DNA of 64,000 nucleotides. Origin: an uncultured Planctomycetia bacterium (GTDB taxonomy: Bacteria; Omnitrophota; Gorgyraeia; Tantalellales; Tantalellaceae). The position numbers and the translations under genes are program-made. Below, one piece after another: positions 30,468 through 43,108 of the stretch. Positions within the stretch are counted from its first letter, which is position 1, and each line of letters starts with the position of its first letter. The notes under the pieces were generated by a model. It had not been told where the DNA came from, ran no database searches, and saw only the letters and a list, made by a program, of their open reading frames with translations. The DNA lies in assembly GCA_964409365.1 (NCBI GenBank), contig CAYPCX010000007.1, positions 18,655 through 82,654 on the forward strand. The letters are read 5' to 3'.

Positions 30468-30481
30468 AACGGATCGTTTAC

Positions 30482-31168
30482 ATGAAGATAGCTATACACC
30501 AGCCGCAGTATCTCCCATGGACGGGATATTTCGATAAGATGGACCGGGCGGACGTCTTTGTCCTTCTGGACGATGTCCAGTACAAGAAGAACGAGTGGCA
30601 GAACCGTAACCGCATCCGTAATGCCGAAGGCTGGCAATGGATCACGGTCCCCGTCCTGTACGAGTTCGGCCAGAAAATAAACGAGGTCAGGATCAATAAT
30701 AAAGAGAACTGGAGGGAGAAGCACCTTAAAAGTCTCGAGGTCAACTACTCCCAGGCCGCCCATTTTGATGAATATATCCTTTTTTTCAGGAAGCACTACG
30801 CTTGTGAATGGGAGAAGCTGGTCGATATAAACGTCCGTTTTATCGAATACCTGGCGGACACGATGGGTATAACGACGGAGATCGTGAGGAGTTCTTCGCT
30901 GGGCATAGGCACTGAAAAGACCCGGCGGCTGATCGATATATGCAAAGCGGTGGGTGCTGACGAGTACCTTTCCGGGGCGGGAGGGGGCGACTACCTCGAG
31001 GAAGAAAAGTTCGCCGGTGAAGGCATCAGGCTTGAATACCAGAAATATGAACAGAAACCCTATGAGCAGGTGTATAATGGATTTTGTCCGGACCTTTCGG
31101 CCGCGGACCTTTTATTCTGTTGCGGGAAAGACAGTATCAATATAATAAGGGAAGGGAGAAAAGAATGA
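30482..31168 (+). CDS. WbqC-like family protein
   Basis: MKIAIHQPQYLPWTGYFDKM...VLLDDVQYKKNEWQNRNRI is the hallmark WbqC-like N-terminus. Confidence 0.75.
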   Translation: MKIAIHQPQYLPWTGYFDKMDRADVFVLLDDVQYKKNEWQNRNRIRNAEGWQWITVPVLYEFGQKINEVRINNKENWREKHLKSLEVNYSQAAHFDEYILFFRKHYACEWEKLVDINVRFIEYLADTMGITTEIVRSSSLGIGTEKTRRLIDICKAVGADEYLSGAGGGDYLEEEKFAGEGIRLEYQKYEQKPYEQVYNGFCPDLSAADLLFCCGKDSINIIREGRKE

Positions 31169-31785
31169 ATATCCTCGCGATCGGCGCTCATCCTGACGAT
31201 ATAGAATACGGGTGCGGAGGCACGCTCCTGAAGATGTCTTCGCAGGAACAGGTACGCCTTTTCTATTTCATAGCGACCAAAGGGGAACTCAGCGGCGGGG
31301 CCAGCGTTAGAGAGAAAGAACAGGAAGAGGCCGCCCGCCTTCTGAAAGTGGAGAAGATATACTGGGGCGGCTTCAAGGACGCCAACTTTTCCGTCGGCAG
31401 GGACCTGATAGGCAAGCTTGAGGAAGTGATATCCGAGATACGCCCCGAGGTCATCTTCGTGAATTATCCCCAGGACACCCACCAGGACCACAGGTACCTG
31501 GCGGACTGCACCGTGGTAGCTTCCCGTTACTGCAAGAAAGTCGTTTATTACGAGGACTACACGTCCGTTAATTATGAACCCGATATCTTCGTTGACATAA
31601 GCGACGTCCTGGGGGAAAAGGTAAAGCTTCTCGAGTGCCACAAGTCGCAGATCGAAAGGGTGTACCCGACGGGGCTCGACATCGTGGAGAGCACAAGGGC
31701 CGTCGCGAGTTTCCGCGGGTTCCAGGCCAAGGTCAAATACGCCGAGGGCTTCAAGGCCCTGAGATATCTGCTGGATACAATATGA
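31165..31785 (+). CDS. PIG-L/LmbE family N-acetylglucosaminyl deacetylase
   Basis: ATG 31165 overlaps the previous stop (ATGA). ILAIGAHPDDIEYGCGGTL and later HQDH motifs. Confidence 0.8.
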   Translation: MNILAIGAHPDDIEYGCGGTLLKMSSQEQVRLFYFIATKGELSGGASVREKEQEEAARLLKVEKIYWGGFKDANFSVGRDLIGKLEEVISEIRPEVIFVNYPQDTHQDHRYLADCTVVASRYCKKVVYYEDYTSVNYEPDIFVDISDVLGEKVKLLECHKSQIERVYPTGLDIVESTRAVASFRGFQAKVKYAEGFKALRYLLDTI

Positions 31786-31800
31786 TGACAAGTTGCCTTG

Positions 31801-31877
31801 AAGAGAGAAGGGTGCTCCCGTACAGGGAGGATCCACACCGGGCGGAGGGGCCCTGGTAGGGAGCACCCTTCTCTCTT
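31801..31877. repeat. perfect 19-bp inverted repeat (aagagagaagggtgctccc / gggagcacccttctctctt) with a 39-nt loop, intergenic
   Basis: Read directly. Lies between the PIG-L stop (31785) and the DegT start (31901). No U-tract follows. Confidence 0.85.
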
Positions 31878-31900
31878 TAAGAGAACATGAAAGGCGAGGC

Positions 31901-32938
31901 ATGATCCCGCATTCAAGACCAACGCTGGGTGAGGAAGAGGCGCAGGCCGCAGCGGAGGTAATACGCTCGGGCCATATAGCCCAGGGAGAAAAGGTAAAAG
32001 AGTTCGAGGGGAAATTGGCGCGGTTCATCGGCGTGAAAGGCGCGGTATGCGTCAATTCCGGCACATCCGCCCTGCATCTGGGCCTTATTGCCATGGGGAT
32101 CGGTCCCGAAGATATCGTGCTCCTTCCTTCGTTCGTCTGCAGCGCTCCGCTGAACGCCATATACCATACGCTGGCCGAGCCCCGTCTTTGCGACATAGAA
32201 CCCGAAAGCTTCAATATCTCCCTGGAAAGCGTAGAAGATAACAGGACTGAGGAGACAAAAGCTGTAATAGTCCCCCATATGTTCGGGGCTCCGGCGGATC
32301 TGCAGAAAATAGAGGAGACAGGCATCCCCGTGATAGAAGATTGCGCTCATTCCGTCGGCGCCGCCTACGGCGACAGAAAAGTCGGCAGTGTGGGACGTTT
32401 CAGCATACTGTCTTTTTATGCCAACAAGATGCTGGCATGCGGCGAGGGAGGGGCGCTCCTTTCCGATGACGAGGAGATACTTTCCAGGGCGAGGGACCTC
32501 AGGGATTATGACGAAAAAGAAGCGTACAGGGTCCGTTACAATTACAAGATGACCGACATACAGGCGGCAGTGGGCCTGGTACAGCTTGAGAAGCTCCCCG
32601 GGATGATAGAGAAAAGGAAGGGAATAGCCTCCCGTTATAACGAGGCTTTCAAGGATCTGGACGTCGTATTGCCTAAGGCGGAGTTCGACCATGTATATTA
32701 CAGGTACGTTATCAGGACCGGTAAGGACGTACAGGACATTATCAGGGCCGGGCAGGAAAAAGGGGTGACTTTTGCCAGGCCCGTATATAGACCCTTACAC
32801 CGCTATCTTGAGCTCAGGTCAGGTTTCCGTAATGCCGACGAGGCCTATTCTTCGGCTTTATCCATTCCTATCTACCCGTCCCTCAGCGGGGAAGAGCAGG
32901 AAAAGGTCATCGATGCGGTCCACCTGCTTTCCAAATGA
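31901..32938 (+). CDS. DegT/DnrJ/EryC1/StrS family PLP-dependent sugar aminotransferase
   Basis: Full-length fold-type I aminotransferase, EFEGKLARFIG, SFYANKMLACGEGGALLSDDEE (PLP Lys region). Confidence 0.85.
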   Translation: MIPHSRPTLGEEEAQAAAEVIRSGHIAQGEKVKEFEGKLARFIGVKGAVCVNSGTSALHLGLIAMGIGPEDIVLLPSFVCSAPLNAIYHTLAEPRLCDIEPESFNISLESVEDNRTEETKAVIVPHMFGAPADLQKIEETGIPVIEDCAHSVGAAYGDRKVGSVGRFSILSFYANKMLACGEGGALLSDDEEILSRARDLRDYDEKEAYRVRYNYKMTDIQAAVGLVQLEKLPGMIEKRKGIASRYNEAFKDLDVVLPKAEFDHVYYRYVIRTGKDVQDIIRAGQEKGVTFARPVYRPLHRYLELRSGFRNADEAYSSALSIPIYPSLSGEEQEKVIDAVHLLSK

Positions 32939-32995
32939 AATCATATTTGTTATAATAATCATACAGCGGATATATGTTAAATTTCTCATATTGCC

Positions 32996-33772
32996 ATGAA
33001 ACGATCCCAGGAACTCAGACTTGACGCTAAGAACAAAAAGCTTTTCTTCGGAAGTGGGAACTGTGATGAAGTGCGCCATCTGTGCGAGGCGATATGCTGC
33101 AGGACGTATGACGTGAACATCAGCGAAGAAGAATACCGCTCCGGCAGATACAAGGCCAGACCGACGTGCAGATTGACCGGGAGGGATTGCGAAAGCAAAG
33201 ATTCGAATTGCATCAACAGAGAGTTCTGGATGTATAGGAAGGCAGATAGATCCTGCGTCTATCTAACCGGAGACAATAAATGCTCTATATATGAATGGAG
33301 ACCGGAAGCGTGCAGGGAGTTTCATTGCGTGGACGGGTGGGTAATATCCCATGCATGCCTTTCAACGAACAAGGAAAGCGTAAAGGCGCGAAAGGACATT
33401 CTTGACGAACATATACTTAAAATAATGAAAGATGACATGAAGTTCAGTCCTAACCCTCTCGTCCGGCCCAAAGCGTTGTTCTATTCAAAAGATAAAAAAG
33501 AAATACACTTTGCGATAGATATCGCGAATAAATGCGGCCTGTCGACCTCCCGCCGCGAAGCCGTCACCTCGGCGCTTGATGGGAATATGCTGTTGGAACT
33601 TTTTGGTCTTTTTGACGGGAATAGAGATCTGGGATCCGTCAGAAAGGAGTTTAACGACAGGTTCGGCCAAGTATTGTCCAGAGAGGACCTTTACCGTATT
33701 GTATGGCTTTTCAATACCGAGAAATTGATAGTTTTCACGCATTGTGCGCTGGTGTTCGGAGATAAGCAGTGA
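32996..33772 (+). CDS. fusion protein: N-terminal YkgJ-like Cys-rich zinc/iron-chelating domain plus C-terminal PqqD-like (RiPP recognition element-like) domain
   Basis: N-terminal half has 14 Cys including CEAICC and CSIYEWRPEACREFHC (compare YkgJ CxxCxxCC ... C.IYE.RP..CR.F). C-terminal 90 aa (HFAIDIANKCGLSTSRREAVTSALDGNMLLELFGLFDGNRDLGSVRKEFNDRF...EDLYRIVWLFNTEKLIV) follow the PqqD pattern. Confidence 0.6.
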   Translation: MKRSQELRLDAKNKKLFFGSGNCDEVRHLCEAICCRTYDVNISEEEYRSGRYKARPTCRLTGRDCESKDSNCINREFWMYRKADRSCVYLTGDNKCSIYEWRPEACREFHCVDGWVISHACLSTNKESVKARKDILDEHILKIMKDDMKFSPNPLVRPKALFYSKDKKEIHFAIDIANKCGLSTSRREAVTSALDGNMLLELFGLFDGNRDLGSVRKEFNDRFGQVLSREDLYRIVWLFNTEKLIVFTHCALVFGDKQ

Positions 33773-34872
33773 TCTCTAAGATGATACCTTTTCCCACTAC
33801 TGTAGACCTGGCTCTTACCGGCAGGTGCAATCTGAGATGCAAACATTGCAACGCTTCCGATGCCTGGGAGTTGGAGAGCGAACTGTCTTTTGATGAGATA
33901 ATAGGGGTTCTCGATCAGATCAGGAAGGAGAAGGTCTTCAATCTGAACCTTTTTGGAGGAGAGCCGTTCTGTTATCCTGAGATCCACGAGATCCTGGAAG
34001 CGCTCAACAGTTATCCGATAAGGATCACTATCCTCACCAACGGCACGCTTATTGACAAGAAAGCCGTTGAGTCGGTCAAAAAGATGAGGTTCCTGGCCGC
34101 TGTACAGGTGAGCGTTGATGGTTCGAACCCTTCCGTGCATGACTGGCAAAGAGGAGAGGGATCGTTCGACAAGGCAATGAACGGGGTCAGGCTGCTCATG
34201 GAAGAGGGCTTGCCGGTGAACTTAAAGGCCATTATCAACAGGCACAATATCGATGATATGGAGAATATGATCCGTATGGCAATGGGCCTGGGCCTCGGCG
34301 GCATGGATTTCGGTGATGCCGTAGAGTGCGGCAGGGCCGCGGTATACGCTAACGAACTTGTTTTCGAAGGCGAGACGCACCGGAAGATGATGGAGACCAT
34401 GTTCCGTCTGAAAAAAAAGTATCCGCGCTTTAACCTGGGCGGGACGCTGGGGCAAAAGGTAAGTATGCTCTGTGACTTTTACGCGAATGGCCGGGGTAAG
34501 GGCGCCAGGGGGACGTTTTCAACCTGCCCCGCGGGATTCAGCATGCTTTCGATACGGTCCGACGGGAAGGTGGTCCCTTGTTCCGCTTTCTGGACGCTTG
34601 TCTGCGGTGATCTTGGAGAACGGTCCCTGAAGGATATATGGGAGAATTCGCAGGTCCTGAACGAGATACGGGCCCTTGCGGATGAGGCTCTTGATAAATA
34701 TAAGAAAGAATGCGCTGATTGCGATTATCTCACCTACTGTAACGGGGGATGCCGGGCGGCCGCTTATTATTCCGCCGGGGGGGATTTAAGAGGCATCAAT
34801 ATGTCGACCTGTCTCGTATTTTCGGATCTGTACGGTTTCAGGGTGGAAAAGGATACCGCTTTATCGGCTTAG
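33769..34872 (+). CDS. radical SAM/SPASM domain peptide-maturase-like enzyme 1
   Basis: GTG 33769 with ggagat SD; overlaps the upstream stop. CNLRCKHC (CX3CX2C), LFGGEPF. C-terminal SPASM cysteines (CPAGF...CSAF...CADCDYLTYCNGGCRAAAY). Confidence 0.8.
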   Translation: MISKMIPFPTTVDLALTGRCNLRCKHCNASDAWELESELSFDEIIGVLDQIRKEKVFNLNLFGGEPFCYPEIHEILEALNSYPIRITILTNGTLIDKKAVESVKKMRFLAAVQVSVDGSNPSVHDWQRGEGSFDKAMNGVRLLMEEGLPVNLKAIINRHNIDDMENMIRMAMGLGLGGMDFGDAVECGRAAVYANELVFEGETHRKMMETMFRLKKKYPRFNLGGTLGQKVSMLCDFYANGRGKGARGTFSTCPAGFSMLSIRSDGKVVPCSAFWTLVCGDLGERSLKDIWENSQVLNEIRALADEALDKYKKECADCDYLTYCNGGCRAAAYYSAGGDLRGINMSTCLVFSDLYGFRVEKDTALSA

Positions 34873-34885
34873 GACCGGGTTCACT

Positions 34886-36016
34886 ATGAGCATGTGTAAT
34901 GAAAAAACAACAGGAAATGTCGCGCCGGAAGGCGACTTGACCAGCCTGTATATCAACCCTACCAGATACTGTAACCTTAAGTGCAGGCATTGCTGGATAT
35001 CTCCGCCGCAGAAAGAAGAACTGGACGGAAAGGGCGGAGAACTGTCGACCGGGGAGATCACAGGGATCATAAAAGAAGCGAAGGGACTGGGACTTAGGGA
35101 CGTCAAGTTCACCGGTGGAGAGCCGCTTTTACGGAAGGATATTACGGAACTTTTGAGGTTCTGCTATGAAGAAGAGGTAAAAACTTCCATAGAGACCAAC
35201 GGCACTTTGATCGACAAAGAGCTGGCTTCAGCCATGAAAAGATACGGGGTGTCTTTCATAGCGGTGAGCCTCGACAGCTACCGGGAAGAACTGAACGACC
35301 GTTTCAGGGGGCGCAAGGGAGCGTTCAAAAAGGCATTGGCGGGCATCAGGGCGCTGATCGACGAGGGCATCAGGCCGCAGGTGATTATGAGCATGTACAG
35401 GGAGAATTTCACCGACCTGCCCGAGTTCCTGAAGATGATGCAGGATCTGTGGGTCAATAATATCAAGCTGAACACTATAACGCCTCTGGGAAGGGGGGCC
35501 TCGCTTTATGATACAGGTGAGATACCCTCGGTCAGGGAGATACTCGAGTTTTTGGAAAGGCTCGGCAGTATCAGAAGGTCGTTCAAAGGCCGGTTATACC
35601 TGGACGTTCCTATAGCTTTCAAAAGTGTCGAGGAAATACACGCGGGCTGTGGGGTGTGTCACATCAAGAATATCCTCGGCATATTGTCGGACGGGAGTGT
35701 CTCTATCTGCGGGATAGGCCATCTTGAGGAGGAATTGCTTTTCGGGTCGGTCAGAGAAGATCCATCCGCATTGAAGTACATCTGGCGCGAAAATACCGTC
35801 CTTAAAAAGATCAAAGAGGAAATACCTTACAAGTTGAAAGGGGTCTGCAGCATCTGTGTTTTCAGGAACAAGTGCCTGGGGTACTGCAGGGCCGAAATAT
35901 ATCATAACACCGGGGATCTTTTCGCGCCGTACTGGTTTTGCCAGGAAGCTTATGACAAGGGGCTTTTTCCTCCAACCAGGCTTGTGCCGGAACCTTTGAG
36001 AGCGGGATATGGATAG
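34886..36016 (+). CDS. radical SAM/SPASM domain peptide-maturase-like enzyme 2
   Basis: CNLKCRHC, FTGGEPL. SPASM cysteines (CGVCHIKN...CGIG...CSICVFRNKCLGYCRAE). Confidence 0.8.
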   Translation: MSMCNEKTTGNVAPEGDLTSLYINPTRYCNLKCRHCWISPPQKEELDGKGGELSTGEITGIIKEAKGLGLRDVKFTGGEPLLRKDITELLRFCYEEEVKTSIETNGTLIDKELASAMKRYGVSFIAVSLDSYREELNDRFRGRKGAFKKALAGIRALIDEGIRPQVIMSMYRENFTDLPEFLKMMQDLWVNNIKLNTITPLGRGASLYDTGEIPSVREILEFLERLGSIRRSFKGRLYLDVPIAFKSVEEIHAGCGVCHIKNILGILSDGSVSICGIGHLEEELLFGSVREDPSALKYIWRENTVLKKIKEEIPYKLKGVCSICVFRNKCLGYCRAEIYHNTGDLFAPYWFCQEAYDKGLFPPTRLVPEPLRAGYG

Positions 36017-36815
36017 CATTTCTTATAGTGCTTTCAGGACAACCATACGTCTTAATTTCCTTAATTTTGAAGAAAGACCGGAATTATTCAAGCCGTCCGA
36101 TTCGCGGGGGGAAGGAAAAGCAGATCTGGATATTTACCTGTACAGGGGCAAGCGCAAGGAGATATCCCGCAAAGCGGAGAGAAGCCGTTTTCCGGTCAGC
36201 GCGGAGACGTTCGAAGGCAAGAAGGTCATCCGGCTTTACGACGGTAAGAGCAAAAGGGTCTTCTGTTTTTTTGAGGAAGGCCTGCTCATCGATCTGGTGA
36301 CGAACAGAGCGCTCAACCTTCCCCTGATGGACCTTCAGAACGTTCTGGACATTGTTTTCATGCATTCCGCTTCGATAGTGATGAACGGCAAGGCGTACCT
36401 TTTTATAGCTCCGAGCGGGGGCGGGAAAAGCACGATAGCCGCTCTGGCCCGGGATGAGGGTTTTTTTGTGATAGACGATGATTTCTGCGCGGTGAAAAGG
36501 TCCGGCGGGAGCTTTTTCGCGGCGCGTTTTCCGTGTTTTCTGTCGAAACGAAAAAGATTTAAAGAATGGGAAGTGGGTGGGCTTTTTCTTCTGAACAAGT
36601 CAAAAGAGAACAAGGTAAGGCCCGTTTCGGGCATCGAAGCGTTGCGCGATGCACTGCCCGAAGCGGTCCGTTATCCCCGTGAGAGAGTAGGCGCCATGCG
36701 GAACCAAGATTATCTCAGGGATGTTTTTTGTTTCCTGGACGAGATGATAGATCGTGTAGGGTTGAGCGTTCTTGATTTCAAGAAGGAAGCAGGTGTTTTC
36801 TCGTGTCTGGTCTAA
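36009..36815 (+). CDS. HPr kinase/phosphorylase C-terminal-domain-like P-loop protein (HprK-related kinase)
   Basis: HSASIVMNGKAYLFIAPSGGGKSTIAA matches the HprK C-domain P-loop region (HG..V...G.G.L..G.SG.GKS). 268 aa, no N-terminal HprK domain. Confidence 0.6.
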   Translation: MDSISYSAFRTTIRLNFLNFEERPELFKPSDSRGEGKADLDIYLYRGKRKEISRKAERSRFPVSAETFEGKKVIRLYDGKSKRVFCFFEEGLLIDLVTNRALNLPLMDLQNVLDIVFMHSASIVMNGKAYLFIAPSGGGKSTIAALARDEGFFVIDDDFCAVKRSGGSFFAARFPCFLSKRKRFKEWEVGGLFLLNKSKENKVRPVSGIEALRDALPEAVRYPRERVGAMRNQDYLRDVFCFLDEMIDRVGLSVLDFKKEAGVFSCLV

Positions 36816-38548
36816 GCTTTTTCGACGGCATTTTCGCTTCGAGGCGTCTTGTTTTACTTGAAGACCTGAAGGGTGTCCTGTCTTATGCGTCTGGCATACT
36901 TAAGAAAGACCGCTTTTCCCTGGCAATGGCCTCTTTCCTGAAGCTTTTAAGTTTCCCGCTGGGTATATCGATAGTCTACATAACGAAAGAGACCTTGGAT
37001 AAAGGTATAATGTCTAAGGACCTGAGGTCGTTCGGGTTCTTCACTGCGCTGGGCCTTTTCGTTTTTCTTCTCATGAGAGTGCTGCTGTACTTTTCGGGGA
37101 GGATCATGAACAGCGTGAAGACAAAGTTTTCCCTTGCGGTGGATCATGACCTTGCCAGGAGGCTTTTCGGTCTTGATTATCTGAAGATAAGACAACTGAG
37201 CTCCGCTGAGAACGCTTTTTACGTGAGTTACGATTGCGGTATCATCGAGAACCTGGTATTCTACGAGCTTCCCGCTCTTTTATCCTTTGTGAAAATACCC
37301 GTTTTCTTTATCCTCGCGGCGCTTTTGTCCTGGCAGTTGAGCCTATTCGTGTTTCTGGCTGTCCCGTTCGCTGTAATGCATACTATCTGGGCGTCGCGAA
37401 AGAGGCGGAGATTGAGATCGGGGTATGTGAAATCAGCGGGCAAGTCCAACGCGCTTTTTAGTGACTTCCTGATCAACGTTAAGCTTATCAAGAGCTTTTT
37501 TAAGGAAAGCTGGGCCGTTGACAGGATCATGAGACGGTTCCGGAGAAAGGCCAGGATAGACCTTTTATCTTCCCGTTTCAGGCAGGTCGAGAGATTTGTA
37601 TACGATATTTTTTCAAAATCCAGCACGGCAGCATTCTGGCTGCTGGGAGGGTATTTAATAATAACCGGCAAGTTAAGTCTTGGATCTTTCAGTGCCGTAA
37701 GCATGTATTCCGCGATGCTGTTATCAGAAGTATACAACCTGGGGTCCATTGTACGGAACCTGAACGAGGAGGGGCCTTCTATACACAGGAGTGCGCAATT
37801 TATAAGGGACATTACCGGGCCGGCTGAAGATGTTCCCGCGGTGCCGGTATCTGGCAAGTCGTTTTTTGGTGGAGATATCGAGTTCAGGGATATCGCGTTC
37901 GGATATAGTAAAGAAAAGCCTCTTTTCCAGGGACTGAACATGCTGGCGCCCGCGAGAAAGTGGACGTTGATAAAAGGTCCTTCCGGCGTCGGCAAGACAA
38001 CGCTTCTAAGTTTGATGATCAGGCTCTTCAGGTCCTGGCGCGGCGGGATCTATATCGGGGGGACGAATATCTTTGATGTGGACATTGGCCGCTTTTCCGG
38101 ATACGTTTCATGCGTGCATCAGGAATCGTATATATTCAATGACACCATCTTTAACAATGTACTTTTGGGTGATAAGAAGCCGGGCGGTCTCGTCAGGGAG
38201 GTCATGCGATTGACAAGGCTTGACGAGCTTGCCGATGACCTTTCTATCGGCTATAATACCAAGATAGGCGAACTTGGCGCAACCCTTTCAGGGGGGCAGA
38301 AGCAGCGGGTCGCGATCGCGAGAGCACTTATAAGAGAACCGAAGGTGCTTATACTGGACGAAGCGACTTCGTTTCTTGACGCCAGGATGGAAAGTGATAT
38401 TTTGAGCGACATAAAGGAACAGTTTTCCGGGCTCACGGTCCTGTATGTCACTCACAGGGAGACCGCGGACAGGTTCGCCGATGTTATCTTTGAACTTAAA
38501 GAGGAAAGGGTCGGATATGGAAGAGAAATGTCCTGTAAGAAATCCTGA
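36803..38548 (+). CDS. ABC transporter, fused permease/ATPase (exporter type, no peptidase domain)
   Basis: N-terminal 6-TM exporter domain. NBD with Walker A GPSGVGKTT, signature LSGGQKQRVAIARAL, Walker B ILDEATS. Confidence 0.85.
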   Translation: MSGLSFFDGIFASRRLVLLEDLKGVLSYASGILKKDRFSLAMASFLKLLSFPLGISIVYITKETLDKGIMSKDLRSFGFFTALGLFVFLLMRVLLYFSGRIMNSVKTKFSLAVDHDLARRLFGLDYLKIRQLSSAENAFYVSYDCGIIENLVFYELPALLSFVKIPVFFILAALLSWQLSLFVFLAVPFAVMHTIWASRKRRRLRSGYVKSAGKSNALFSDFLINVKLIKSFFKESWAVDRIMRRFRRKARIDLLSSRFRQVERFVYDIFSKSSTAAFWLLGGYLIITGKLSLGSFSAVSMYSAMLLSEVYNLGSIVRNLNEEGPSIHRSAQFIRDITGPAEDVPAVPVSGKSFFGGDIEFRDIAFGYSKEKPLFQGLNMLAPARKWTLIKGPSGVGKTTLLSLMIRLFRSWRGGIYIGGTNIFDVDIGRFSGYVSCVHQESYIFNDTIFNNVLLGDKKPGGLVREVMRLTRLDELADDLSIGYNTKIGELGATLSGGQKQRVAIARALIREPKVLILDEATSFLDARMESDILSDIKEQFSGLTVLYVTHRETADRFADVIFELKEERVGYGREMSCKKS

Positions 38549-38789
38549 TATCGTGGCGCGAAGGGAGAAGAAAGAAGCGCTTCTTTTCAATCCCGCTGAT
38601 GGCCACATGCTGTGTATTAACGGTACCGGTATGTTCGTCTGGGACCTGTGTGACGGGTCAAGTTCGGGGGACGATATTGTCGAAAAAATAGCGAATGTTT
38701 ATGAAATTACTTGCGAAAAAGCGACCGAAGATTATGATCGCTTCATAAAGGATATGGAGAAAGCCGGATTTATAGGATACAGAACCTGA
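38517..38789 (+). CDS. PqqD family protein (stand-alone RiPP recognition element-like peptide chaperone)
   Basis: ATG 38517 lies within the end of the ABC gene. NPDIVARREKKEALLFNPADGHMLCINGTGMFVWDLCDGSSSGDDIVEKIANVYEI...ATEDYDRFIKDMEKAGFIG matches the PqqD pattern closely. Confidence 0.7.
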   Translation: MEEKCPVRNPDIVARREKKEALLFNPADGHMLCINGTGMFVWDLCDGSSSGDDIVEKIANVYEITCEKATEDYDRFIKDMEKAGFIGYRT

Positions 38790-38799
38790 AGGGGGCCGT

Positions 38800-39096
38800 A
38801 TGAAGAAGAAAAAGAAGAAGTACACTCCTCCTCTTGTCCATGACCTGAGCGGTACGACTATCAGGGGGGCCCAGGCGTTCAATTGCAAAAGCGGCGCCGA
38901 AGCCGGACAGCTTTGTGATTTCGGCGCTGTGGCCGGTGGACAATGCAATACCGGAAGGGTGGCTACGCTCGGATGCTCTGCCGGCGCTGAATACGTCCCG
39001 ATGCCGAAACAATGCAGACCCGGGTTCATGGCTACCCAGCAGTGCCGTGACGGCACGTCGGCTCAGGGCACGTGTAAGACGGGATTCGGCTTTTAG
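38800..39096 (+). CDS. candidate RiPP precursor peptide: 98-aa Cys-rich peptide with a hexa-lysine N-terminus and seven tandem C-x-x-G decapeptide repeats
   Basis: gggggc RBS 6 nt upstream. MKKKKKKYTPPLVHDLSGTTIRGAQA then FNCKSGAEAGQL CDFGAVAGGQ CNTGRVATLG CSAGAEYVPMPKQ CRPGFMATQQ CRDGTSAQGT CKTGFGF. Eight Cys; every repeat starts C-x-x-G. Sits between the PqqD and peptidase genes. Confidence 0.55.
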   Translation: MKKKKKKYTPPLVHDLSGTTIRGAQAFNCKSGAEAGQLCDFGAVAGGQCNTGRVATLGCSAGAEYVPMPKQCRPGFMATQQCRDGTSAQGTCKTGFGF

Positions 39097-39119: not shown

Positions 39120-39848
39120 ATGCGCAGGATCGTGTACGGCCAGAGCATGATGCCATTTCTCAGGATGCTGGATGAATGCGTCTGCAAAAGTATAGACCCT
39201 CTTCAGATAAGTGCAGGAGATATAGTAACCTACCGCATACCCGATTGTGGTGCCACTGCCATTCACCGGGTCCTATATGTGAACAAGGAAGAAAAACATA
39301 TTGTAGCCAAGGGCGACAATATTCTTTCTGTCCCCGGTGACATAGTGCCTTTTTCGGAGGTGAAGGAAAAGGTGGTAACTGTTAAAAGGGGGGACAGGGT
39401 CTTTGATCTGGATACTTTTCCCCGCAGACGGGCGAACGCTCTTATCGCGTTCCTTTCCCGTCATAACCTGACGCCGTTTTTGGTCAAAAGGAGATTCCTT
39501 TCGCCGGTATTATTGAGTATTTCAAGAAAAAAGATCTACAAAGATGCGAGGAAGAGATATTATAAAAAGCTCTTTTTCACGTCCTATAGAAGCGGGGAGG
39601 GCCTTCGCTTTTTTGCTTTCGTGGGCAAGACAAAGAGCGCGGATGCCCTGATAAAAGAAAAGTCTGGATGCGGCGTGATAGTGAGCGCGCGTATCAGGCA
39701 CAGGGACAGGAACGAAGAGTTCGCCCGCGTATTCCTTGACAAGATCATAGAAGCGGCGGACAGGCAGTATGGCTCGGAGCATGATATCCATATAACCGAT
39801 GATACTTTCGAGGACCTTTTTTTGACTCCCACCGAATATAATGCATAA
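39120..39848 (+). CDS. Sec11/SipW-type (Ser-His dyad, ER/archaeal-type) signal peptidase I homolog with about 120-aa C-terminal extension
   Basis: YGQSMMPFL (catalytic Ser box), GDIVTYRI, AIHRVLYV (HRV His box as in SipW/Sec11 rather than bacterial KR), KGDN. The C-terminal 120 aa have no recognisable family. Confidence 0.55.
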   Translation: MRRIVYGQSMMPFLRMLDECVCKSIDPLQISAGDIVTYRIPDCGATAIHRVLYVNKEEKHIVAKGDNILSVPGDIVPFSEVKEKVVTVKRGDRVFDLDTFPRRRANALIAFLSRHNLTPFLVKRRFLSPVLLSISRKKIYKDARKRYYKKLFFTSYRSGEGLRFFAFVGKTKSADALIKEKSGCGVIVSARIRHRDRNEEFARVFLDKIIEAADRQYGSEHDIHITDDTFEDLFLTPTEYNA

Positions 39849-40983
39849 CATAGAACTTTTCCCGGCTTTGGGTTTCGATCTTTCCGCTTTAAGCGATGAA
39901 AAAAAGCTCATCGTCCTTTTTTCCAGGACGGATCTTGATGATGATATCCGGACGCAGGCGGAGTCCATACTTCACCCGGATAAAGTGGACTGGGACCGTT
40001 TCCTTGAGCTTGCCAACGTAAATCAGGTAACCTCTCTTTTTTACAGGTCCATTCAGCGGGTCGACGGCATTCCCGAAAAGGTGCTGGCCCGTTTGAGGGA
40101 ATGGTCGGCCGATATCTTCGCTTATAACATTAGGAACTTTGACGCCGCGAGGAGGCTTTCGGAACTTTTCCGCGAGGAAGAGATGGAGATCATTTTCACG
40201 AAGGGGCTTCCGTATCTCATTGATATATATGAAGATATGGGGCTCAGGGAGATGGCGGACGTCGATATTTTAGTGAAGCCGGAGGATATTCGCAAGGTGG
40301 ACATGCTGCTGGAAGGCGAAGGGTTCGCTCCTTTCGAAGAAAAGGAAGGGCTTGACGATTACAGGGCCCAGAAACTGTATTTTCGGGGTGACGGGATACA
40401 CCTGGACGTGCACAGGGGTTTTGTCGGGCGCATGCTGCACAACAGGGTCTTGGGAATAGATCCGGAAAAGGCCTGGGAGAATAAAAGAGAGCTCAGAAGG
40501 GACGATGTCCGCATTGATACACTTGACCTCACTCATACGCTTGTTTACCAGTGCCTGCACCTTTCCATGCAGCACAGTTTTTCCGGGATAAGGTGGTACG
40601 TCGACATCAATGAGTTCGTGAGAAAGTATGAGAAAGAGATCGATTGGGACAGGCTGGTCGACGCCGCGGGGGAGTACAGGATCAGGAAGCCCGTTTATTA
40701 TTCGCTTCTTTTTACGAAGGACATGTTCGATGCTCCCGTGCCCGGCCGGGTCATGAAAGAACTGAGCGGGGCAACGGGCAGGTGGGACCGGTGGTTCTTC
40801 CGCCGGATAAAGGCGAACGCGACGGGCGTGGATTATCTCGCGGAACTGGCGATGTTCGACAACTGCCTGGATGCCGCAAAGTTCATCATGCTGAGTTTCG
40901 TGTTTTATCCTCGCCGGATATTGCATTTTTTCGGGATATCAGGCAGTATATTTAAGGCATTACTATGGAAAAAGAAAAGTTGA
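39841..40983 (+). CDS. nucleotidyltransferase family protein (uncharacterised nucleotidyltransferase, NTP_transf_5-like)
   Basis: 380 aa. ADVDILVKPEDIRKVDMLLEGEGF (GS/D..D nucleotidyltransferase core context). Same length and architecture as the NTP_transf_5 proteins seen in lasso-peptide and PqqD-containing clusters. Confidence 0.55.
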   Translation: MHNIELFPALGFDLSALSDEKKLIVLFSRTDLDDDIRTQAESILHPDKVDWDRFLELANVNQVTSLFYRSIQRVDGIPEKVLARLREWSADIFAYNIRNFDAARRLSELFREEEMEIIFTKGLPYLIDIYEDMGLREMADVDILVKPEDIRKVDMLLEGEGFAPFEEKEGLDDYRAQKLYFRGDGIHLDVHRGFVGRMLHNRVLGIDPEKAWENKRELRRDDVRIDTLDLTHTLVYQCLHLSMQHSFSGIRWYVDINEFVRKYEKEIDWDRLVDAAGEYRIRKPVYYSLLFTKDMFDAPVPGRVMKELSGATGRWDRWFFRRIKANATGVDYLAELAMFDNCLDAAKFIMLSFVFYPRRILHFFGISGSIFKALLWKKKS

Positions 40984-41504
40984 GAGAGGTCTGGTGGACT
41001 ATAGCCGCGGCGTATGTCCTGGTTATCTATTCCACCCTTACGGTCGCGCCGAGTATATGGGAAAGTATCGATGTTTTCTTCGGCGGCAAGGCCATAATTG
41101 TCCTGTATTCTCTTTACTTCATAGCTGTCGTTTCTGTTCTGTATTATCTCATCCATGTAAAAAGAGAAATGTTCATTCTGACCTATATACTTTTTTTCCT
41201 TTTCATCGCTATCCTGTTCATGCTGACGAAGCTCGTAAAGAGTCCCGCGGAAAAGATACACTTGGCCGAGTACGCGATATTGGGAGTCATTTTATACAAC
41301 GCTTTAAAGGTGGATCTCGATGTTTACGGCGGAAAGCTTTATTTGTACGGTTCTCTCATCTGCGTTTTAGCGGGTTTTGGCGACGAAATAATACAGAAGT
41401 TCCTCCCCGGCAGGTTCTTCGGGTGGAAAGACGTCACCGTTAACGCCGTCAGTGGTATAATAGCCCTGCTTATGATCAGGTTCGTTGTCCTGAAAAAAAG
41501 TTAG
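40965..41504 (+). CDS. VanZ-like family membrane protein
   Basis: Four TM helices and the GFGDEIIQKFLPGRFFGWKDV motif typical of VanZ-like proteins. Overlaps the upstream gene by 19 nt. Confidence 0.6.
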   Translation: MEKEKLREVWWTIAAAYVLVIYSTLTVAPSIWESIDVFFGGKAIIVLYSLYFIAVVSVLYYLIHVKREMFILTYILFFLFIAILFMLTKLVKSPAEKIHLAEYAILGVILYNALKVDLDVYGGKLYLYGSLICVLAGFGDEIIQKFLPGRFFGWKDVTVNAVSGIIALLMIRFVVLKKS

Positions 41505-41525
41505 AAAAATATCCCTCAAAATTCT

Positions 41526-41554
41526 TTACAAGTTGTAAAGCTAAGTGATAAAAT
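41526..41554 (+). promoter_or_regulatory. putative sigma70 promoter overlapped by a 17-bp perfect palindrome (CTTTACAAGTTGTAAAG, 41524-41540)
   Basis: TTTACA at 41526-41531, 17-nt spacer, TAAAAT at 41549-41554. The palindrome covers the -35 element. 45 nt upstream of the receiver gene. Confidence 0.35.
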
Positions 41555-41598
41555 AAGTAACGCCGCTCGACGGTCGGTGACAGGGAAAGAAGAGCATA

Positions 41599-41955
41599 AT
41601 GCCGGAACATAGAAGAGTAGTAATAGCAGACGATAACAGGGAGATATGCGAACTGATCTCGGATGTCCTCGGACATTCGGGATACAACGTAGATACGGTA
41701 TATAACGGTTATGAGCTTTTGTCCTATCTGGAGAATAACAACCCTTCCATAATAATACTTGATCTGATGATGCCGGAGAAGACCGGCCTTTCTATCCTCA
41801 GCACGCTCAAACAGGTATCCCCTTATGCCCGTATCATCATCTATACGGGTTACCAGGAATATGAGAACAGCGTCTACGCCAGGACGGCGGACAGGTTCCT
41901 TGTGAAGGGCGGGAGCATGGAGGACCTGATCCAGGCCGTGCAGGACCTGACCTGA
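41599..41955 (+). CDS. single-domain response regulator (CheY-like receiver)
   Basis: RVVIADDNREI...IIILDLMMPEKTGLSIL...FLVKG receiver signature, 118 aa. Confidence 0.8.
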   Translation: MPEHRRVVIADDNREICELISDVLGHSGYNVDTVYNGYELLSYLENNNPSIIILDLMMPEKTGLSILSTLKQVSPYARIIIYTGYQEYENSVYARTADRFLVKGGSMEDLIQAVQDLT

Positions 41956-43080
<1,125 letters not shown>

Positions 43081-43108
43081 TATCCAACATCTAAGATCTA
43101 ACATCTGA
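43081..43108. repeat. heptamer-periodic degenerate repeats (tatccaa catctaa gatctaa catctga)
   Basis: Read directly. Reverse complement resembles the gatgttagat units at 46741-46790. Confidence 0.6.

Follow-up and report, generated by a model that had tools for sequence, protein, structure and literature searches.

An anchorless signal peptidase homologue as the probable leader peptidase of a radical SAM peptide cassette in an uncultured bacterium

We analyzed a 64,000-nucleotide stretch, hereafter the window, of contig CAYPCX010000007.1 (positions 18,655 to 82,654, forward strand; assembly GCA_964409365.1), which derives from an uncultured Planctomycetia bacterium placed by GTDB in the Omnitrophota. 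The open reading frame (ORF) at 39120..39848 (+) encodes a 242-amino acid protein that lies directly downstream of the gene for a small precursor peptide. [quoted passage not shown] RiPP recognition element (RRE)-dependent leader cleavage has been demonstrated for LppS; for the window protein, we infer below its catalytic activity, where it cuts, what its C-terminal domain does, and in which order the steps run.

LppS comes from the linear polyphosphorylated peptide (LPP) clusters of Bacillota, which lie in capsule loci and share the core genes LppS (an archaeal-type type I signal peptidase, SpI, and SipW homologue), LppB (a discrete RRE), LppK (an HprK-like kinase), LppN (an NTP transferase), and LppD (an MsbA-like exporter) (Popov et al., Nat Commun, 20 May 2026, PMC13381572). 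In that work, deletion of lppS led to loss of the leader-less product, cleavage of the LPP leader in vitro required LppS together with LppB, and the substitutions S29A, H68A, and D93A in LppS each abolished cleavage. Mass spectrometry (MS) placed the cut after T-1 of ...YxxPxVLxHQxIxFET|xxS, and Ser3 of the resulting core is polyphosphorylated by LppK. In the crystal structure described there, D70 of LppB forms a hydrogen bond to the leader Tyr while N33 fixes a kink at Pro, and an AlphaFold 3 model backed by mutagenesis has the N-terminal α1 helix of LppS touching the sheet formed by LppB and the leader. The authors describe SpI-like peptidases as previously undescribed in RiPP pathways and LPPs as restricted to Bacillota (PMC13381572).

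Results

The protein resembles Ser/His signal peptidases of the ER/archaeal type

The 242-residue product opens with MRRIVYGQSMMPFL, carries AIHRVLYV at residues 47–54 and KGDN at residues 64–67, and consists of a peptidase domain (residues 1–96; 39120..39407, +) followed by a C-terminal extension. Relatives were collected by an exhaustive hidden Markov model (HMM) search over 1.84 billion representatives, in which 18 clusters matched the whole length of the protein at E < 1e-30; ~1,400 weaker matches covered the first ~115 residues alone with an offset of 25–35 residues, as is typical of ordinary signal peptidases that have an anchor. The exhaustive search was needed to recover the family, as word-indexed homologue searches returned only 4–6 relatives. 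Among curated models, TIGR02228 (sigpep_I_arch, NCBIfam) matched residues 5–86 (E 2.3e-9, 37.3 bits), and at E ≤ 0.1 the Pfam models Peptidase_S24 and Peptidase_S26 were found in 9 and 5 of the 24 relatives, respectively.

A search of the PDB with the single peptidase sequence returned matches at noise level only (SEC11A at E 1.5, tied with hemoglobin). When a profile of the 24 full-length family members was compared with PDB sequences, human SEC11C (E 9e-12) and SEC11A (E 4e-10) ranked first, and the bacterial Ser-Lys enzymes followed at E 3e-5 to 6e-5. His49 aligns to the general-base Lys of Staphylococcus aureus SpsB and of 4nv4 (VKRVIG). Because SEC11C and SEC11A outscore the Ser-Lys enzymes and because of this alignment of His49, we assign the enzyme to the Ser/His (ER/archaeal) type, and we conclude from these sequence comparisons that its resemblance to ER/archaeal-type signal peptidases exceeds chance. 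A LexA/UmuD-type S24 enzyme and a bacterial S26A Ser-Lys enzyme were also considered and ruled out, since every member has His49 as the residue in the general-base position.

The putative catalytic residues are conserved throughout. In profile alignments with SEC11A, Ser9 (codon 39144–39146) pairs with Ser56, His49 (39264–39266) with His96, and Asp66 (39315–39317) with Asp116 of the GDNN box; the corresponding residues of LppS, found both by hhalign and in the alignment, are S29, H68, and D87. Ser9 lies in GQSMMPF, which aligns to the SGSMEP box of SipW. Nine residues (Ser9, Met10, Pro12, Gly33, Asp34, His49, Arg50, Gly65, and Asp66) do not vary when the family is aligned with LppS and with two bona fide SipW sequences, both taken from the supplement of PMC13381572, with Ser9 counted where the N terminus is complete; Ser9, His49, Arg50, and Gly65-Asp66 remain invariant down to members of ~20% identity. 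A candidate third acidic residue, Asp74 (codon 39339–39341), is suggested by the family alignment, in which this position is Asp or Glu in 19 of 24 members, and by hhalign, which puts it beside D93/E94 of LppS.

These results bear on an earlier note on this DNA, which had read the Ser box and the HRV His box as those of an ER/archaeal Ser/His enzyme rather than a Ser-Lys one and had proposed an alignment with SipW and Sec11 as a check. The profile matches to SEC11C and SEC11A and the position of His49 agree with that reading, and the alignment finds Ser9, His49, and Asp66 conserved and the second Asp displaced. Its further assignment to the Sec11/SipW type holds for the homologous domain and the catalytic boxes but not for the membrane anchor, which is missing, or for the TIGR02228 score, which falls below the cut-off.

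The peptidase has no membrane anchor

The highest 19-residue Kyte-Doolittle (KD) average in the protein is 0.96, so that it has no transmembrane (TM) segment. Nor can the gene start further upstream, because an in-frame stop at 39075–39077 precedes the ATG and the 14 intervening codons include no ATG, GTG, or TTG. Family members likewise begin ~8 residues ahead of the Ser, the exceptions being gene calls truncated at Met10 and two N-terminal extensions that are not hydrophobic. SipW, by alignment, has ~45 residues including a TM helix ahead of its Ser and a second TM segment at its C terminus. The N-terminal TM anchor by which S26B enzymes are recognized is thus absent from the window protein, whose Ser is residue 9, and the protein falls outside SipW/Sec11 proper on account of the missing anchor and the sub-cut-off HMM score. 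With a TM segment at neither terminus, the active site must be cytoplasmic.

Supplementary Data 1 of PMC13381572 lists small non-Bacillota SpI-like peptidases beside RREs (sequence similarity network clusters 18 and 23). One of the proteins in the supplement, OGR25484.1 from Desulfobacca (132 aa), begins at MGSSMFP and has no N-terminal helix; this helix-less start implies that anchorless, helix-less variants may be spread more widely than the family described here.

The neighboring peptide carries a polar, nonsecretory leader

The precursor gene (38800..39096, +) encodes a 98-amino acid peptide, MKKKKKKYTPPLVHDLSGTTIRGAQAFNC; the ORF opens MKKKKKKYTPPLVHDLSGTTIRGAQAFNCKSG and ends 23 bases upstream of the peptidase ATG. 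Its predicted leader (residues 1–26, 38800–38877) comprises a Lys run, the motif YTPPLV (residues 8–13, 38821–38838), and the terminal AQA (residues 24–26, 38869–38877). With a grand average of hydropathy (GRAVY) of −0.94 the leader has no hydrophobic run, and the most hydrophobic 7-residue KD window of the whole peptide (1.6) falls in the core. A Lys-rich n-region and a small-x-small c-region are present without an h-region between them, which is not the n-h-c organization of a Sec signal peptide, and the judgment of the earlier note that the segment is too polar for one is borne out.

In an alignment of eight precursors, K5, K7, Y8, and P11 are invariant, as are the Cys, Gly, and Ala positions of the repeats described below. 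The leader keeps YxxPx[V/L/A], with Tyr and Pro invariant in all 11 precursors whose N terminus is present; YxxPxV is a motif to which RREs of the PqqD type bind. This YxxPxV-type leader, the RRE encoded next to it, and the precedent of LppS suggest a leader peptidase acting on a nonsecretory leader, as had been supposed before the homologue was brought into the comparison. Six consecutive Lys codons (AAGAAGAAAAAGAAGAAG) occupy 38803–38820, and a Lys/Arg run precedes YxxP in every complete precursor; it perhaps anchors the N terminus of the leader on the RRE, as K-18 of LppA does, or acts on translation.

The core (residues 29–98) consists of seven tandem units of ~10 residues, C-x-x-G-x-x-A-x-x-x, with 7 Cys. 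The Cys, the Gly at +3, and, in five units, the Ala at +6 are invariant among the eight aligned precursors; the L009 precursor (loci are numbered L001 onward) has one unit fewer, and that of L012 has only 5 Cys. Presumably it is on these units that the two radical SAM/SPASM enzymes of the cassette act. The sequence C-x-[S/T]-G is conserved in the first and last units (Ser31 and Thr94), and since the position equivalent to LPP Ser3 is Ala here, Ser31 and Thr94 could be phospho-acceptors.

The leader is most likely cut after Ala26

The last Ala before the first Cys, P1 of the presumed AQA|F site, is present in 12 of 12 precursors. At P3 these 12 precursors have Ala (6 precursors), Val (2), or else Ile, Leu, Thr, or Phe, and together the P1 Ala and the P3 pattern fit the −3/−1 rule of type I signal peptidases. 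Counted from the motif Tyr, the P1 Ala is the 19th residue in 8 of the 10 tabulated precursors with complete leaders, and also in L015, while the residues just upstream of A-x-A vary among Gly, Glu, Ser, Ile, Ala, and Leu. The F-M-A junction of L015 resembles the LPP F-E-T. Given that P1 is Ala in all 12 precursors, we favor a cut at A26|F27 over one at G23|A24.

The A-x-A motif as such is not special, because it occurs four times in this Ala/Gly-rich precursor (AQA, AEA, AVA, and AGA); only the AQA position is conserved among relatives. Cutting at several sites, at the other A-x-A motifs of the core, was ruled out, as those motifs are not conserved and number 0–4 per precursor. The AQA|FNC site named in the earlier note retains its support from the invariant P1 Ala, although the motif is less distinctive than it seemed and the alignment with LppA, considered next, gives another position.

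Two points weigh against A26|F27. First, MAFFT aligns LppA YARPMVLSQQPVRFETAQSWNKG with window YTPPLVHDLSGTTIRGAQAFNCKSG without gaps (...FET|AQSWNKG over ...IRG-AQAFNCKSG), so that, by homology, the cut would fall three residues upstream, at G23|A24. Second, the conserved Ala could belong to the core rather than to P1: it resembles the G-x-x-A of the repeats, and A-x-A could be where the core begins, as AQS is in LPP. The role of the enzyme as an RRE-guided leader peptidase would be the same if the cut fell at Gly23|Ala24, and the core would then open with AQAFNC. The alignment from YxxP to the junction, with Tyr 16 residues before the cut in both peptides, speaks for this site, as does the fact that the LppA cut after T-1 was established by MS (PMC13381572); Ile21 would moreover supply a hydrophobic P3 in the manner of F-3 of LppA. 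However, P1 across the relatives would then be Gly, Gly, Gly, Glu, Gly, Ser, Ile, Ala, Glu, or Leu, and P3 would be equally variable, unlike the residues F-3, E-2, and T-1 of the LppS site, which are conserved and required (PMC13381572). The spacing from Tyr to AQA also differs in L005 and L013, and the helix that sets the geometry in LppS is missing from the window peptidase. We therefore regard G23|A24 as an unlikely position and retain A26|F27 as the preferred one.

The C-terminal extension is probably a degenerate GNAT-like domain

Residues ~97–242 (39408..39845, +) form a ~145-amino acid extension that, in the AlphaFold2 (AF2) model and from Foldseek and profile comparisons, is predicted to contain three helices followed by a degenerate, truncated GNAT-like α/β core. 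The earlier note had listed an unexplained extension of 120 amino acids; the extension exists, but it is longer than stated and can be given a putative fold. The mean predicted local distance difference test (pLDDT) score is 90 for the full-length peptidase and 83 for the C-terminal domain alone, and the predicted layout is a β-rich segment (1–96), three helices (100–148), four antiparallel strands (151–192), a long helix (199–217), and a short strand.

GNAT acyltransferases make up most of the top 50 Foldseek matches of the domain in the PDB; their probabilities reach 0.99, but their E values are only 0.03–0.3 and their template modeling (TM) scores ~0.4; the superpositions have root mean square deviations of 2.3–3.9 Å over 70–105 columns. 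The family profile weakly matches the N-acetyltransferases 7wx5, RimI, and NAA10 (E 0.03–0.7), and P0028, a distant full-length member, has a significant match to Pfam Acetyltransf_1 at the equivalent place (E 7.6e-12). The C-terminal domain of the window protein has no Pfam match, and the domain-only profile found none among PDB sequences. We read the extension as a degenerate GNAT-derived domain.

GNAT enzymes bind the pyrophosphate of acyl-CoA through a loop, motif A, of the form R/Q-x-x-G-x-G/A. In the window protein the loop past the fourth strand is R-H-R-D-R-N-E-E-F-A, in which the glycines are absent. It overlaps the near-invariant motif I-R-x-R-D-R-N (residues 192–198, 39693–39713, +), whose R-D-R-N is invariant in the 13 closest members and nearly so in all 24. 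The conservation of this motif equals that of the catalytic boxes, and it is placed where GNATs bind the CoA pyrophosphate.

A GNAT-like fold invites the possibility that the protein is bifunctional, a reading compatible with the leader-peptidase role, in which the C-terminal domain acylates the new N terminus or another amine of the core. N-terminal acetylation following leader removal occurs in other RiPPs, for example by MdnD in microviridins, and besides P0028 the distant members P0047 and P0023 retain sequences like GNAT motif B. We find this improbable, however: most members, including the window protein, have R-x-R-D-R-N-x-x-F-A in place of the pyrophosphate loop, the chain of the window protein stops short of the final GNAT strand or strands found in longer members, and the low Foldseek significance and the absence of a Pfam GNAT match stand as given above. 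In our preferred reading of a dedicated leader peptidase, the C-terminal domain may instead dock the RRE–leader complex and/or the nucleotidyltransferase-family protein encoded next door, because the N-terminal docking helix of LppS is missing here.

The peptidase is syntenic with an RRE, the precursor, and a nucleotidyltransferase

We compared the window with the loci of nine other family members and with L015, which was reached through a protein labeled ScmF by JGI; L010 duplicates the L001 type. The order radical SAM, radical SAM, ScmC, ABC exporter, PqqD, small ORF (81–99 aa), peptidase, NTP_transf_5 recurs in every sufficiently long contig and is identical in L001–L009, L012, L013, and L015. 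In two lineages the peptidase-GNAT protein and NTP_transf_5 form a single in-frame polypeptide (P0005, 621 aa, L005 10001–11866; P0016, 643 aa, L007 5526–7457), and in the window the NTP_transf_5 gene starts within the peptidase gene, overlapping its stop by 8 nt (39841–39848). The fusions and the overlap suggest a physical complex of the two proteins, and the constant PqqD-precursor-peptidase-NTP_transf_5 order, with the two fusions, supports the view that the peptidase is dedicated to the cassette, as had been proposed from the window alone. The housekeeping neighbors are far more conserved across the loci (SecDF 80–85% identity, TGT 71–80%) than the peptidase (29–58%). By record titles and NCBI names, the relatives are hosted by metagenome-assembled genomes (MAGs) labeled Omnitrophota or Planctomycetia.

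In the window, the cassette runs on the plus strand. Upstream of the precursor lie two radical SAM/SPASM maturases, one ScmE-like (33769..34872; TIGR04250, 219 bits against a cut-off of 400; Pfam Radical_SAM and SPASM) and one ScmF-like (34886..36016; TIGR04251, 319 bits, cut-off 400). They are followed by an HprK-related/ScmC-like P-loop protein (36009..36815), which matches NCBIfam HprK_rel_A (E 4.8e-5) and ScmC (20 bits against 125) weakly, an MsbA-like ABC exporter (36803..38548; Pfam ABC_membrane and ABC_tran, NCBIfam MsbA-type), and a PqqD-family RRE of 90 aa from its conserved start (38517..38789; Pfam PqqD E 4.7e-16; ScmD-like at 46.9 bits against 100). HprK_rel_A matches 6 of 7 orthologues of the P-loop protein (best E 2e-9), which share an invariant Walker A sequence A-P-x-G-G-G-K-x-T and carry the precomputed Pfam assignment PF27840 ScmC. 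Downstream of the peptidase are the NTP_transf_5 nucleotidyltransferase-family protein (39841..40983; Pfam PF14907, E 2.4e-51) and a VanZ-family membrane protein (40965..41504; NCBIfam vanZ_1 at 40 bits, cut-off 20), with which the conserved cassette ends in the window lineage and which is syntenic in L001, L003–L005, L007, L008, and L012.

The cassette is headed by a Cys-rich, CxxCxxCC/YkgJ-like protein of 258 aa (32996..33772; a borderline match to Pfam PF03692, E 1.1e-4, 23.3 bits where the cut-off is 23). Its orthologues share 61–62% identity in L001–L004 and L010, 37% in L005, and 27% in L012, and a PrmA-like methyltransferase takes its position in L009 and L015. Sugar genes of the WbqC, PIG-L, DegT, or glycosyltransferase type flank the cassette in the window (~30480–32940, where they were named by synteny with L001 only), in L009 (13185–15463), and in L015 (17817–20169), a setting similar to the capsule loci reported for LPP and paeninodin clusters. 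A 542-aa ORF at 41476–43104 (−), antisense to response-regulator and TGT genes, is almost certainly a spurious shadow ORF.

The peptidase is probably an active enzyme rather than a scaffold

Some features of the protein run counter to its assignment as an active signal peptidase homologue. The TIGR02228 score of 37.3 bits lies below the curated cut-off of 51.85, and Pfam has no match for the window peptidase alone. Sec11 enzymes and LppS have a second essential Asp six residues past the Asp of G-D-N-N (D103/D109 in yeast, D116/D122 in human, D87/D93 in LppS); at this position, +6 after GDN, the window protein has Pro72, and its nearest acidic residue is Asp74, at +8. Finally, the top Foldseek match of the full model is Streptococcus pyogenes SipA, a noncatalytic signal-peptidase homologue. 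The SipA match and the displaced Asp, along with the NTP_transf_5 fusions, which suggest a structural partnership, would suit a noncatalytic scaffold or chaperone, a SipA-like pseudo-peptidase that holds the RRE, the precursor, and NTP_transf_5 while another enzyme cuts the leader. We consider this very unlikely. Pseudo-enzymes usually lose their catalytic residues, whereas Ser9, His49, Arg50, and Gly65-Asp66 are invariant here even among the most distant members; in addition, Pfam and NCBIfam scans found no second protease in the conserved cassette and no C39 peptidase domain in the MsbA-like exporter.

The protein is hardly an ordinary secretory SipW-like signal peptidase that acts on Sec substrates and sits beside the peptide gene by chance, as its best named HMM ("signal peptidase I", archaeal type) might suggest, and we reject this reading because the anchor is absent, with none possible upstream, the neighboring leader is polar and has no h-region, and distant MAGs strictly preserve the synteny with the RRE, the precursor, and NTP_transf_5, with gene fusions occurring as well.

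A model for RRE-guided leader removal

Returning to the dedicated leader peptidase, we propose that the PqqD-type RRE would bind YTPPLV of the polar leader, after which the Cys-repeat core would be modified by the radical SAM/SPASM pair, joined probably by the HprK-like P-loop protein and NTP_transf_5. The RRE–leader complex would then present the junction to the peptidase, with Ser9 as the nucleophile, His49 as the base, and Asp66 and perhaps Asp74 in support; the cut would most likely follow Ala26 (A-Q-A|F-N-C), and the product would be exported by the MsbA-like ABC transporter. In this scheme the C-terminal helical/GNAT-like domain is expected to take over docking to the RRE–leader complex and/or to NTP_transf_5.

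A more speculative extension, which we put forward tentatively and think less probable than not by some distance, is that the GNAT-derived domain is a checkpoint module. Its R-x-R-D-R-N motif might read a phosphate- or nucleotide-bearing modification of the precursor, made by the HprK-like protein or by NTP_transf_5, or might bind NTP_transf_5 directly, so that leader removal would be licensed only after modification.

Discussion

SpI-like leader peptidases reached the RiPP field only in May 2026, with one family from Bacillota (PMC13381572). The window locus appears to place an LPP-type chassis in MAGs labeled Omnitrophota or Planctomycetia and to join it to two radical SAM/SPASM maturases and a Cys-repeat core, and in doing so it links the orphan SynChlorMet cassette of NCBIfam/TIGRFAM to a mechanism with an experimental foundation. 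The docking element of the peptidase seems to have been swapped, an N-terminal helix having been lost and a C-terminal GNAT-like domain gained. An anchorless, soluble-looking S26B enzyme with a conserved P1 Ala and a tolerant P3 could serve as a tool for leader removal, and the sugar/polysaccharide neighborhood in both systems hints at a shared role at the cell surface. If the checkpoint reading were true, it would represent a new coupling of RiPP tailoring to proteolysis, and it would give the LPP-type chassis of RRE, SpI-like peptidase, kinase, and NTP transferase an old origin, with radical SAM chemistry joined to it outside Bacillota, in the SynChlorMet cassette.

Among known systems, the lasso peptide gene clusters of the paeninodin type share with the window cassette a PqqD-like B1 protein, an HPr-kinase-like protein, a nucleotidyltransferase, and an ABC exporter, and in both a [Y/W]xxPx[L/V] leader is read, or predicted to be read, by a discrete RRE (PMC13381572). 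The window cassette differs in having neither a lasso cyclase (the Asn-synthetase-like C protein) nor the Cys protease B2, and its leader peptidase is a serine enzyme of the S26 type. SipW of Bacillus and Sec11 (SEC11A/C; MEROPS S26B) share with the window enzyme the fold, the S-M-x-P Ser box, the H-R His box, and the G-D-N box, SEC11C being its best match among solved structures (E 9e-12). Unlike them, the window enzyme has no TM segments, is predicted to act on a leader that lacks an h-region, has its second Asp at +8 rather than +6, scores below the TIGR02228 cut-off, and carries an extra GNAT-like domain.

The SynChlorMet models (ScmC/D/E/F) lie closest for the tailoring genes: the top NCBIfam matches of the two radical SAM/SPASM enzymes and of the PqqD protein are ScmE, ScmF, and ScmD, and the P-loop protein matches HprK_rel_A first and ScmC second. 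All four nevertheless fall below the equivalog cut-offs (ScmE 219/400, ScmF 319/400, ScmC 20/125, ScmD 47/100). JGI names relatives of the radical SAM proteins at 38–58% identity ScmF, and one such locus, L015, has both the peptidase-GNAT protein and NTP_transf_5. The NCBIfam comparison gave no match specific to this cassette for the precursor, the peptidase, or NTP_transf_5 (the precursor and NTP_transf_5 have no match, and the peptidase matches the generic TIGR02228 only), and a literature search on the SynChlorMet cassette, the Scm names, and the TIGR numbers found nothing relevant. By these model scores, the window cassette stands closest to the SynChlorMet models, though it lies below their cut-offs.

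The closest functional comparison is with LppS and the LPP clusters. The peptidase domains are homologous (hhalign probability 98.5%, E 2e-15, 103 columns) and have the same Ser, His, and GD. Both systems have a nonsecretory leader with YxxPxV (YTPPLV in the window, where it is the predicted target), and both encode a discrete RRE beside the peptidase, with N33, D70, Y60, and W40 of LppB invariant in the window-type PqqD proteins. An HprK-like P-loop protein, an NTP_transf_5-type transferase, an MsbA-like exporter, and a setting among sugar or polysaccharide genes complete the likeness. Because LppS was reported in May 2026 (PMC13381572), the use of the SipW family as a leader peptidase, which the earlier note had singled out as unusual, is no longer without precedent.

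The two systems also differ. The window enzyme lacks the ~25-residue N-terminal α1 docking helix, with 8 residues before the Ser versus 28, and adds the ~145-aa C-terminal helical and GNAT-like domain, sometimes fused to NTP_transf_5, to a peptidase that in LppS totals 151 aa. At the junction, the window precursors have [A/V/I/L/T/F]-x-A| in contrast to F-E-T| of LPP, and the aligned window positions are I-R-G / A-Q-A. The position of the phospho-acceptor Ser3 is Ala in 10 of the 11 precursors that span it and Met in L009, never Ser or Thr. The window cassette adds the two radical SAM/SPASM maturases, the CxxCxxCC protein, and VanZ; its core is built from Cys repeats whereas that of LppA is rich in Gly, Asn, and Pro; and its hosts are MAGs labeled Omnitrophota or Planctomycetia rather than Bacillota. 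As far as the sequences allow the comparison, we conclude that the window system probably works like LppS/LPP but is not an LPP by the chemistry that defines one, since Ser3, the FET junction, and the docking helix are absent.

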